A program made the translations under genes and the position numbers. This document shows positions 32,214 through 35,081 of a stretch of 50,850 nt of DNA, one piece after another. The stretch is taken from IMG/VR virus record IMGVR_UViG_2526164600_000002; one strand, given 5' to 3'. Under the pieces are notes generated by a model that saw only the letters and a list, made by a program, of their open reading frames with translations, did no database searches and was not told the origin of the DNA. Position 1 is the first letter of the stretch. The number at the start of each line of letters is the position of its first letter. This stretch comes from a virus. Lineage: Duplodnaviria; Heunggongvirae; Uroviricota; Caudoviricetes.

Positions 32214-32429
32214 TTACTCTCCTCTCGCAGCCTTACGCCTGTCTTCTTTAATCTTGAAATAAAGATTTGTCAGATACGTCAGCAGGCCAAAAACCAGGCT
32301 ACCCAGCACACCGATTGCAGCCCACTGTGACGGAGTTACTTTATCGAGTAACTGCAATGCCCAGAAACCAGCATTACCCGCCGATGTGCCATAGGCAACA
32401 CCTGTTGTTAACTTATCCATTGATTTCAT
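32214..32429 (-). CDS. essQ: Holin S (phage 21 S-type pinholin, dual-start MKSM)
   Basis: ORF 32214..32504; from [18 protein letters not shown]... gives 71 aa with two TM segments and charged C-terminus. Confidence 0.8.
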
Positions 32430-32596
32430 ATCCTCACCCCGATGTACACGGATGGTGCAATATGTTTGAAAAGATCGGAGTCTACGGGGTAGTTTTGACA
32501 GCACACGTTGTTCTCAACGGCGCTAAAAAACATACACATTAAAAATGTGGGTAATTATTTTGAAAGAAAATCATATATAAAATAATAATACGAGAA

Positions 32597-32818
32597 ATGT
32601 TTTCATATTTAGTGTACTGTATACGGCCATTTATACAGGAAATGCCTATGTCAGAACGTAAAGACTCAAAATCACGCCGTAATTATCTCGTTAAATGTTC
32701 CTGCCCAAACTGCACCCAAGAGTCAGAACACAGTTTTTCAAGAGTACAAAAAGGTGCCCTTTTGATCTGCCCTCATTGCAACAAAGTATTCCAGACAAAT
32801 CTTAAAGCTGTAGCCTGA
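32597..32818 (+). CDS. Hypothetical small zinc-ribbon protein (CPNC...CPHC)
   Basis: ORF track 73 aa; two CxxC pairs; probable start at an internal Met. Confidence 0.35.
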   Translation: MFSYLVYCIRPFIQEMPMSERKDSKSRRNYLVKCSCPNCTQESEHSFSRVQKGALLICPHCNKVFQTNLKAVA

Positions 32819-33180
32819 TTGATTTTATTAGTAACAAGTATTTTTATATTTTAATAATATATTTAAAGCAGATAATAAAAAACCCGCCTGAGCGGGTTTG
32901 AGATTGTGGTGCTTTTTGTGGGAGTCATCCACTTACGCACTTTGTTTTGCGATGCCAGCAGTTAGCTTCTGCTGTGAAACTATTCATGCAGCAAACCTGC
33001 ACTTCACCACAATGGTTAGCATACTTTTCCTGATTAAGATTTTGCCAAATATGCTGGCCATTGTTTCATGTATTGGACCTCCTTACTTTTTATTAAAGAG
33101 ATCCAATATTCACTACTCTGTCCGTATCTCTACTCAGGCATCAGCCTTCTTCGTTATCGTATACAGACGAGCGATGAATT

Positions 33181-33396
33181 TTAATCAGTAATGATGACAT
33201 TTACTGCTGCAGGACCTTTAGCACCACTCTCTATAGAGAAGGTAACCTTTTGACCTTCAAATAAGGTTCGATAATTATCATTCTGAATCGCAGAAAAATG
33301 CACAAACACATCTTTACTACCATCAACAGGAGAAATAAAGCCGAAACCTTTATCAGCGTTAAACCATTTTACTAAACCAGTCATTTTATTTGACAT
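33181..33396 (-). CDS. cspB: Cold shock protein CspB (71 aa)
   Basis: ORF track; CspA-family cold-shock domain. Confidence 0.9.
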
Positions 33397-33706
33397 TCTA
33401 CATTCCTTAACTTGAGCCTTTCGGCATAAATGGTTTGCATAACAGAAACGACTTCGTACTTAATTGGAGAGACTCAAAGAAGGAATAAGTGAATAACACC
33501 TGAAATGAGAACTGCTTTAGTAAACTACTTCGTATATCGTCTGTTCTTCAAACCGACGCAGTCATTAACTCATAGTTGAACATATGAAGCAATGTTTATT
33601 TTAGACATCCAGCCACCTTCAATCCTATCAAAAAAGTAGTTTTCTCCAGGAACGTGTGTATGGTGCACCAGGTTATCAGTATTAAGGAGTTTTTCTGTCC
33701 CCTAAA

Positions 33707-33907
33707 ATGACAGGAATTGTCAAAAACTTTGACGGCAAAAGCGGCAAGGGTCTTATCACCCCATCCGATGGTCGTATCGATGTCCAGCTTCATGTTTCAG
33801 CGCTCAATCTCCGCGATGCAGAAGAAATTACCACCGGATTACGCGTGGAATTTTACCGGATAAATGGTCTGCGTGGCCCTTCAGCTGCCAATGTTTACCT
33901 TTCATGA
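33707..33907 (+). CDS. cspF: Cold shock protein CspF-like (start may lie 4 codons upstream at a non-ATG codon)
   Basis: ORF track 66 aa; divergent from cspB as in Qin. Confidence 0.8.
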
Positions 33908-34196
33908 GCTATATTAAAGCTTTAATTTCAGGCCCCATCGGATCACACATGGAGAGTTTTTATGAATAACCCCGTCTGTCTTGATGACTGGTTGATTGGC
34001 TTTAAAATCTTATGCTGTACTTTGGCCGTAATAGCTCTGCTAATAATATAATAAGCAGACTCATTGTGTTTAGGGACATTGTACTGGAAGAAAACATTTT
34101 AAACATCAGGCAAATAACCAAGTCACCAGCTAAATAATAAGTTAACAGACATGAGTCCCGGGATGAGATTCAACATTACCATTGCCCCATTTAAAG

Positions 34197-34228
34197 CACA
34201 AAACCCGCTCATCAGCGGGTTTTCTACT
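34197..34228. terminator. Hairpin AAACCCGC-TCATCA-GCGGGTTT flanked by T-runs on both strands; candidate tR' (late) and cspF terminator
   Basis: Inverted repeat at 34201-34222 with T-rich tracts on each side. Confidence 0.5.
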
Positions 34229-34261
34229 TTTTCTTAACGTCGGGTATACAAAGCCCATCGT

Positions 34262-34297
34262 TGAAAAAATTTTATCCATATTTTTTGAAAAATGCAA
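34262..34297 (-). promoter_or_regulatory. Candidate late promoter PR' (minus strand -35 TTGCAT, 17-bp spacer, -10 TAAAAT) just downstream of Q
   Basis: Plus-strand ATGCAA at 34292-34297 and ATTTTA at 34269-34274; followed about 50 nt later by the hairpin terminator. Confidence 0.45.
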
Positions 34298-34328: not shown

Positions 34329-35081
34329 TTATCTCGTCACCTTCCTCAATTGCGCTTCCGCGTATGCTTCTTCCTGCCAGCACTTTGTTACCAGTTTACC
34401 AATGACGTCCGCATACCCCTTATACCACTGATAATCGGTCAGGTCTGGTACCAGCTTCTGGACATGACGTCGTGCCAGCGTGGTCGGTAAACGACTAAAC
34501 CGGTTTCCATTACAACGCCCACAAATCTTATATACCGGTACGCCATGAAACCGGGTTCTTTTTTCATCCAGAACAATCCCTTTACCCTTACACCCTCTGC
34601 ACGCTGTGCTGGCTTCGCCCTTACCATGGCAATGCTGACATAGTTCCTTCACCCATTCTTCCTTGATTACAGATTCCCCGCGTCTGTAGTGTTTCACCAC
34701 TTCGCGCAATACATTATAAAATCCCGTACCTGAACAATGCTCACAGCGAGCCTTACTTGCCGCAGACCTGGAGTAATCAGCAAAGGCAAAACTCACGAGG
34801 TAAGGAATAATCTGTAACCGGATTTCTTCACTCAATTTGTTCAATGTCGGGTTATCCAGTGCCATCGCGTAATTTAGCAGGCCTTCAATCGCAAACTGAG
34901 GGTCCTGAACACCAACTTTTGCCAGAAATAAGGCCAACCCAAGTGGTGCTTTCGACTGCACCATCCCCTGCGCTGCCATTACATCCGTAATTGTTAAACA
35001 ACCGGTGCCTGTCGCTGGAGCGTCATCGCTCAATTTTGGAGATTTTGGGGAGTAATATTTTGGTAAGGCTTCAAGGTTCAT
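34329..35081 (-). CDS. quuQ: Late-gene antiterminator Q (zinc-finger CxxC..CxxC)
   Basis: ORF 34329..35111; 250 aa from MNLEALPK; Cys-rich motifs CEHCSGTG...CQHCHGKG...CRGCKGKG...CGRC. Confidence 0.85.
   Translation of the reverse strand: MNLEALPKYYSPKSPKLSDDAPATGTGCLTITDVMAAQGMVQSKAPLGLALFLAKVGVQDPQFAIEGLLNYAMALDNPTLNKLSEEIRLQIIPYLVSFAFADYSRSAASKARCEHCSGTGFYNVLREVVKHYRRGESVIKEEWVKELCQHCHGKGEASTACRGCKGKGIVLDEKRTRFHGVPVYKICGRCNGNRFSRLPTTLARRHVQKLVPDLTDYQWYKGYADVIGKLVTKCWQEEAYAEAQLRKVTR

Follow-up and report, generated by a model that had tools for sequence, protein, structure and literature searches.

The DNA just downstream of the Q antiterminator gene in this window (the whole 50,850-nt stretch of the IMG/VR record IMGVR_UViG_2526164600_000002) is, with high confidence, the cassette that controls the late genes in a Qin-type lambdoid prophage, comprising the late promoter PR', a promoter-proximal pause element and the terminator tR', and it resembles that of lambda. 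A Q-dependent cassette is defined by a Q gene, PR', a pause element, a terminator and late genes (PMC9388147). The following features were located in the window around the promoter.

34329..35081, minus strand: Q antiterminator gene of the ydfT/quuQ type, 250 aa (Pfam PF03589, E = 3.6e-54)
34292..34297, minus strand: PR' -35 hexamer TTGCAT, read from the sequence, starting 32 nt after the Q stop codon
34275..34291, minus strand: 17-bp spacer TTTTCAAAAAATATGGA, candidate Q binding element (comparison with lambda and phi80)
34269..34274, minus strand: PR' -10 hexamer TAAAAT, read from the sequence
34254..34262, minus strand: predicted start A34262 with the pause element AACGAT (+1 to +6) and GGG (+7 to +9), placed by identity to lambda
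34236..34262, minus strand: predicted 5'-terminal RNA stem, AACG/CGUU plus UGGG/CCCG (minimum free energy [MFE] fold and family covariation)
34200..34223, minus strand: tR' hairpin AAAA-CCCGC-UGAUGA-GCGGG-UUUU (sequence, scan and fold)
34196..34203, minus strand: U-rich tract UUUUGUGC and mapped RNA 3' end C34196 = +67 (K-12 Term-seq)

This is an ordinary switch of a known class, close to lambda's own and differing from it in detail. The initial annotation had proposed a PR'/tR' pair placed for Q to act on, a proposal now supported by collinearity with lambda PR', by conservation across many loci and by an RNA 3' end of K-12 that falls at the predicted terminator.

The locus is that of a Qin-type lambdoid prophage. 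Its gene set comprises ydfU (DUF968), Q, a cspF-like gene on the plus strand, cspB on the minus strand, ynfU on the plus strand, a phage-21-type holin, lysozyme and spanin, and the 190-bp segment 34150-34340 is 100% identical to Qin of Escherichia coli K-12 MG1655. Qin of K-12 is a truncated cryptic prophage with an annotated extent of about 20 kb, whereas the element in the window is full length, with every large ORF of the late region on the minus strand. The large ORFs keep to this strand down to about 3 kb, lysis genes among them, and the Pfam search placed holin (PF04971) and lysozyme (PF00959) on the late strand; this downstream ORF content is consistent with a full-length Qin-type late region. 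The window is also 98% identical across 25 kb to the deposited phage PhiR42_1, and a literature search for a paper on this phage and its viability returned none. The block from Q to cspB occurs at a coverage of at least 80% in 1,601 of 5,426 complete E. coli genomes. In a small set of contigs (L166-L170 and L094), those assigned to Pseudomonas, Psychrobacter, Tardiphaga, Oceanobacillus and a Pseudomonadales MAG carry a lambda-type Q with the exact lambda PR' region, and the cassette of the E. coli Qin type is found in one from a Veillonella MAG. Contamination of public assemblies with lambda or E. coli DNA is the most likely origin of all of them.

Judged by its sequence, Q belongs to the Q-lambda family and is a long form of it. 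The three Q families are defined by PF03589 (Q-lambda), PF06323 (Q82) and PF06530 (Q21) (PMC9388147); the Pfam search matched the window Q to PF03589 and to the DnaJ zinc-finger model DnaJ_CXXCXGXG (E = 1.3e-8), with no match to PF06323 or PF06530, and a phmmer search matched it to the Q-lambda structure PDB 7UBM (E = 4.6e-36). The initial annotation had suggested phages 82 and 21 as comparators for the late promoter, but these belong to the wrong families, and the comparison was rejected because the Q family differs. In phage 82, the pause element is also displaced downstream by about 9 bp and the pause occurs at +25 (PMC5001585), whereas the element of the window lies at +1, as in lambda. 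Compared with lambda Q, the window Q is 43 aa longer, owing to an insertion in the region of the zinc-ribbon arm that adds two CxxCxGxG motifs, for a total of four. This arm of lambda Q contacts the Q site and sigma region 4 (PMC9388147). The long-form insertion is common to phi80, SF6, a Klebsiella phage and the window, and full-length 250-aa relatives of Q are found in many phage records. The Q proteins of phi80 and P22 are only 33-37% identical to the window Q, while those of SfV, mEp460, Ayreon and the Stx2c-converting phages are about 93-94% identical to it.

The Q gene ends with a TAA stop codon at 34331-34329 (minus strand). Direct reading bore out a minus-strand TTGCAT, 17-bp spacer and TAAAAT 32 bp past this codon, as first annotated. 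Consensus matching alone gives this promoter no significance; its context does. A consensus promoter scan of 6 kb found 12 promoter-like sites against 8.6 expected, that is, at chance frequency, and reported the PR' site only as TTTGCA-18-TAAAAT (9/12). The composite pattern TTGNNN-N17-TANNNT-N6-AACGATGG, which joins promoter and pause element, has one match in the window and no match in 100 shuffles. Its 9-mer AACGATGGG also has a single occurrence in the window, insignificant by itself at an expectation of 0.59. The AACGAT+GGG at +1 to +9, which the initial annotation had missed, is the most diagnostic part of the region and is identical to the lambda pause element. In lambda, a -10-like hexamer with GGG at +7 to +9 forms a sigma-70-dependent pause element, and the pause occurs at +16 (PMC5001585). 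At the level of sequence, the window has such an element, a -10-like hexamer and a G-rich discriminator in the initial transcribed region. From this identity to lambda, we infer a transcription start at A34262 (MG1655 1642422) and a sigma-70-dependent pause at AACGAT+GGG; the spacer is a probable Q binding element by the same analogy. No primary start at MG1655 1642422 (minus strand) is listed in the RNET-seq supplements of PMC7876045, and the Cappable-seq supplements of PMC4782308 list nothing for this position in either genome coordinate version.

The two promoters can be set side by side in an ungapped register, TTGACT-TATTGAATAAAATTGGG-TAAATT-TGACTC-AACGATGGGT for lambda and TTGCAT-TTTTCAAAAAATATGGA-TAAAAT-TTTTTC-AACGATGGGC for the window. 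They share the Q family, the succession of -35, 17 bp, -10 and a further 6 nt, the identical AACGAT+GGG at +1 to +9, 11 of the 17 spacer positions and a GATGGCRACAT upstream of the promoter. They differ in the -35 hexamer (TTGACT in lambda, TTGCAT in the window), in the -10 hexamer (TAAATT and TAAAAT, respectively) and in the distance to the Q stop codon, the window promoter being 10 bp nearer. The lambda terminator lies nearly 200 nt past the start, whereas the leader of the window is about 67 nt, and the window has about 1.8 kb of cold-shock and small genes ahead of its holin. Immediately before the pause element, lambda reads TTGACT and the window TTTTTC. In the loading complex of Q-lambda, sigma region 4 moves to this segment (PMC9388147), so the details of Q loading may differ between the two.

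The same arrangement extends to other phages. The Q stop codons of lambda, P22, phi80, SF6 and Klebsiella phage 5 LV-2017 are followed, at a distance of 35-46 nt, by a -35/17-bp/-10 promoter and then, 6-7 nt after the -10 hexamer, by (A/T)AACG(A/C)TGG. Downstream of Q, the window has the hexamers and spacing of a PR' and is collinear with the PR' of lambda, P22 and phi80. The phi80 record NC_021190 annotates a PR' -35, a Q site within the spacer, a -10 and a terminator about 50-80 nt downstream. The phi80 PR' and the P22 gene 23 late promoter both have short leaders, with a terminator roughly 35-80 nt past the start. Phi80 shares with the window the -35 TTGCAT, a long-form Q and a second terminator just before the holin, and differs in its pause element (AACGCT) and its spacer (TTCGCGGAAAAACTGGA). 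In SfV, mEp460, Ayreon and the Stx2c-converting phages, the Q-PR'-tR' module has about 84-86% DNA identity to that of the window through the terminator, with a T6-T7 tract where the window has T4 and with other genes past the terminator; the difference in these genes is explained by a site of accessory (moron) gene insertion. The terminator is annotated in the SfV and Ayreon records, the latter of which also has a second terminator.

Conservation among close relatives is strongest in the promoter and pause elements. We collected 80 viral contigs with a Q 94-100% identical to the window Q, and 79 of these loci (22 unique variants) have the promoter and the pause element. Column variation was counted in the 18 unique variants that align without gaps. 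Neither the -35 hexamer (0/6 columns) nor the pause element with GGG (0/9) varies, and the spacer varies at 4/17 positions, the six bases before +1 at 4/6 and the positions from +10 to +25 at 10/16. The -10 hexamer is TAAGAT or TAGGAT in relatives. In some relatives the terminator is another GC hairpin, for example CCTCGC-TTCG-GCGGGG or ACCGCC-ACCGA-GCGGT, and the hairpin, original or replaced, is always followed by T4-T7, starting at +58 to +61 (+68 in four loci). That unrelated hairpins each carry a T run suggests selection on function and not on sequence. The window/K-12 allele has the shortest T run, T4 followed by GTGCTTT, compared to 5-7 in relatives. For most phages, the similarity breaks off at the final base of the hairpin, suggesting that the Q-PR'-tR' unit is one module with variable cargo behind it. 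One E. coli locus (L103, strain SCPM-O-B-8794) has a truncated Q match (residues 76-250 only), AAAGAT instead of AACGAT as its pause element and a broken C3:G pair in the 5' stem described below; it looks like a decaying cassette.

The terminator lies a short distance beyond the pause element. The hairpin AAAACCCGC-TGATGA-GCGGGTTTT occupies 34223-34200, that is, +40 to +63 if +1 is A34262, and is followed by GTGCTTT on the late (minus) strand and by CTACTTTTTC on the plus strand; the early description of a strong hairpin with T runs on both strands downstream of the promoter was thus correct on direct reading. The leader RNA folds at -30.4 kcal/mol (z = -6.1), and the Rfam search gave no family match at PR'/tR'. 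A Term-seq study of K-12 by Adams et al. in 2021 lists a curated "orphan" 3' end at MG1655 1642356 (minus strand) in each of its three growth conditions; the average read counts are 103,591 and 55,368 on two sheets, and the flanking sequence is ...GCGGGTTTTGTG[C]TTTAAATGGG (PMC7815308, Supplementary file 1). Transferred through the 100% identical segment, this position maps to 34196 in the window. It lies 8 nt past the GC stem, at +67 counted from the predicted start, which would make the leader RNA roughly 67 nt long. The 3' end itself was mapped in K-12, and the leader that it closes would begin at PR'. An abundant minus-strand RNA end in uninduced K-12 indicates that the hairpin is a real end, as expected for a tR' below a constitutive PR'. 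Hairpin, U tract and K-12 3' end together make up an intrinsic terminator between PR' and the late genes. A further minus-strand 3' end in the same tables, at MG1655 1642188 (one sheet), corresponds to 34028 in the window, 168 nt past tR', and sits after a weak AT-rich hairpin (PMC7815308). It points either to some readthrough of tR' in uninduced cells or to an unrecognised start between 34196 and 34028.

The hairpin could instead be the terminator of the early operon (ydfU and Q) only, with the promoter hexamers as chance matches. Term-seq gives the 3' end only, so the RNA could have come through the Q gene, and promoter-like matches in this AT-rich region do occur at chance frequency. Against this, both hexamers, the distance between them and the 9-nt pause element line up with lambda PR', the -35 and the pause element are invariant in relatives while their flanks vary, and the composite promoter-pause pattern was absent from all 100 shuffles. 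The tR' of lambda also stops unmodified polymerases arriving from upstream, and the roles of early terminator and tR' are compatible. An early-operon terminator therefore agrees with a PR'/tR' cassette, yet it leaves the conservation of promoter and pause element unaccounted for, and as the sole role of the hairpin we consider it very unlikely.

A second alternative makes the hairpin mainly a plus-strand terminator for convergent cspF/ynfS, shielding Q from antisense transcription, with an incidental role on the minus strand. T runs do lie on both sides of the hairpin, and our pattern scan called it terminator-like in the plus orientation only, with the tail TTTTCTACTTTTTC; the minus orientation was missed because the minus-strand T run is just 4. 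But the mapped 3' end is on the minus strand, and the K-12 Term-seq tables list none at the plus-strand positions searched, 164237x-164239x (PMC7815308). The Rho-dependent termination table of the same study gives a plus-strand region antisense to ydfT at MG1655 1643015 (PMC7815308), which is about 34855 (plus strand) in the window. This region indicates that antisense transcription enters the Q gene (ydfT) in K-12 and suggests that plus-strand transcripts pass the hairpin. Relatives without cspF, moreover, keep the hairpin or a replacement with a T run on the late strand. A primary role on the plus strand is highly improbable on this evidence; the hairpin may have a secondary bidirectional role. 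That the region instead codes for a 51-aa ORF (34142-34297, minus strand) can practically be dismissed: the ORF exists and is entered as a hypothetical protein in PhiR42_1 (PV340562), but it starts at the TTG of the -35 hexamer, T runs of 4, 5, 6 or 7 and hairpin replacement in relatives break its frame, and the conservation sits in the promoter and pause elements without a codon-wise spread.

With the late-gene cassette as the preferred reading, the stretch between tR' and the lysis genes would have to be crossed by the late transcript. Its features are as follows.

32214..34195, minus strand: stretch to cross before the lysis genes (ORFs, Pfam, Rfam, terminator scan, K-12 and PhiR42_1 annotation)
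33707-33907, plus strand: cspF-like ORF (ORF, Pfam)
33181-33396, minus strand: cspB with a cspA-type 5' UTR (ORF, Pfam, Rfam)
32880-32899, both strands: second terminator-like GC hairpin with T runs on both sides (terminator scan)
32597-32818, plus strand: ynfU, zinc-ribbon ORF (ORF, Pfam, K-12 annotation)
next after hairpin 32899-32880, minus strand: holin essQ (Pfam, annotation)

The initial annotation had the late transcript crossing cspF in antisense, cspB and a small zinc-ribbon ORF before the holin, and had called this unusual. The crossing stands; cspB would be read in sense, and the zinc-ribbon ORF (ynfU) is on the late path, in antisense orientation on the plus strand. The verdict of unusual does not, since 47 of 76 related viral contigs with PR' have cspF, cspB, ynfU and holin in the same order, with the holin match from about +1837, and PhiR42_1 has the layout of the window as well. 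Going by gene order, this crossing is the usual layout of the lineage; other relatives have different cargo at the site after tR'. The hairpin at 32880-32899 would give the late path a further terminator, and its plus-strand version is the sequence just before the row for 1641226 in the K-12 Term-seq table (PMC7815308). Rfam matches to isrK and a Trp leader near this hairpin, at 32.9 kb, are below threshold and were rejected as what look like generic terminator matches.

The only Rfam match above threshold is the cspA thermoregulator RF01766 at 33134-33557 (minus strand; 158.9 bits, E = 8e-43). A full-length 5' UTR of the cspA thermoregulator type gives cspB a cold-inducible control of its own within the late transcription unit. 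K-12 Term-seq also has a 3' end inside the cspB UTR, at about 33476 in the window (PMC7815308), and the correspondence between K-12 and window coordinates shifts by 2 nt somewhere between 34028 and 33476. The cspF-like ORF of the window starts at ATG 33707 and encodes 66 aa, and the gene in K-12 and PhiR42_1 is 213 nt, about 70 aa; the equivalent of the upstream start would be CTG in the window.

The leader RNA may also have a structure at its very 5' end. In the MFE fold, AACG (+1 to +4) pairs with CGUU (+24 to +27) and UGGG pairs with CCCG, and a CGTT downstream of the pause element is also found in lambda, P22, phi80, SF6 and the Klebsiella phage. We surveyed 80 genome loci with a Q 33-100% identical to that of the window, together with seven phage loci, which gave 72 unique leaders in 37 clusters. 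The automatic anchor was misplaced in about a dozen divergent loci; 12 were re-anchored by eye, and two without a recognisable PR' were dropped. At least 4 Watson-Crick pairs from exactly +1 were found in 26 of the 37 cluster representatives, compared to a mean of 7.6 and a maximum of 16 in 1,000 shuffles (z = 7.9). No excess was seen for a control arm with its start at +6 to +8 (z = 0.1). Leaders that start with AACG have CGTT in 16/18 cases and TGTT in 1/18, and those that start with AACA have TGTT in 5/5 and CGTT in 0/5. In a structure-naive MAFFT alignment, 68.6% of cells show pairing between columns 1-5 and columns 21-25, compared to 25-45% for a slid partner, and 15 cells are changed on both sides, against 7.9 ± 2.8, a count reached by 0/500 shuffles. 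Such double changes separate lambda (AACG...TCGTT) from L116 (AACA...TTGTT), phi80 (AACGCT...ATCGTT) from L121 (AACACT...ATTGTT) and P22 (AACGAT...CTCGTT) from L117 (AATGAT...TTCATT). A pause-element arm complementary to a 4-5-mer at about +19 to +27 was seen in most of the leaders compared (the window, L003, L085-L088 and L091-L165).

RNAalifold predicted no structure from the plain MAFFT alignment of the 37 leaders, because loop lengths differ between the sequences. Relatedness inflates the stem statistics and some anchoring was done by eye, so the stem is likely real but unproven. Our proposal that Q-lambda-type late leaders begin with a conserved 5' stem, the 3' arm of which tracks changes in the pause element (AACG/CGUU, AACA/UGUU, AAUGA/UCAUU), is accordingly a tentative one, to which we assign slightly less than even chances. 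A leader stem is not mentioned in the two open-access lambda-Q papers searched, and older literature may describe one. Should the stem exist and have a function, these bases would serve two readings: sigma-70 would read them as non-template DNA, and afterwards they would be read as RNA. One possible role of the stem is to protect the 5' ends of the roughly 30-kb late mRNA and of the abundant short leader against 5'-end-dependent decay; another is to act with the Q nozzle.

Taken by analogy with lambda, the cassette would work in the following way. The constitutive sigma-70 promoter TTGCAT-17-TAAAAT would start RNA at about A34262. On the non-template strand, AACGAT and then GGG would mimic a -10 element and discriminator, to which the polymerase-bound sigma-70 would re-bind, producing a promoter-proximal pause near +16. 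Without Q, the polymerase would leave the pause, stop at the hairpin and U tract and free a leader of about 67 nt. Upon prophage induction, Q would be made and would bind the spacer that separates the two promoter hexamers. Docked on the paused complex, it would form, with NusA, the exit-channel nozzle described for Q-lambda. The Q-modified polymerase would then ignore tR' and later terminators, including the hairpin at 32899-32880, and would cross the 1.8-kb cspF/cspB/ynfU insert to reach the lysis genes (holin, lysozyme and spanin) and, on the same strand, some 28 kb of genes for head and tail.

The free leader has a parallel in Shiga-toxin phages, where termination between PR' and tR' yields the small RNA StxS, a constitutive by-product of antitermination control that arises by processing of a 258-nt transcript, is bound by Hfq and acts on known targets (PMC7547250). 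The predicted RNA of the window would likewise be a short constitutive leader, with an abundant 3' end in uninduced K-12.

As a late-gene control cassette, the element would be the switch for lysis and virion gene expression in a very common E. coli prophage lineage. Its identification explains an abundant "orphan" 3' end of K-12 Term-seq as the tR' of the Qin prophage and places cspB, cspF and the small gene ynfU within a late transcription unit. It also offers natural variants for the study of Q-lambda: a long-form Q with an enlarged zinc module, another spacer and probable Q site, a short leader and, if the stem is real, a pause element whose bases also make up one of its arms in the RNA. 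The textbook mechanism is unchanged; what is added to it is the explanation of an orphan RNA end in K-12 and a putative covarying stem at the 5' end of the late leader.
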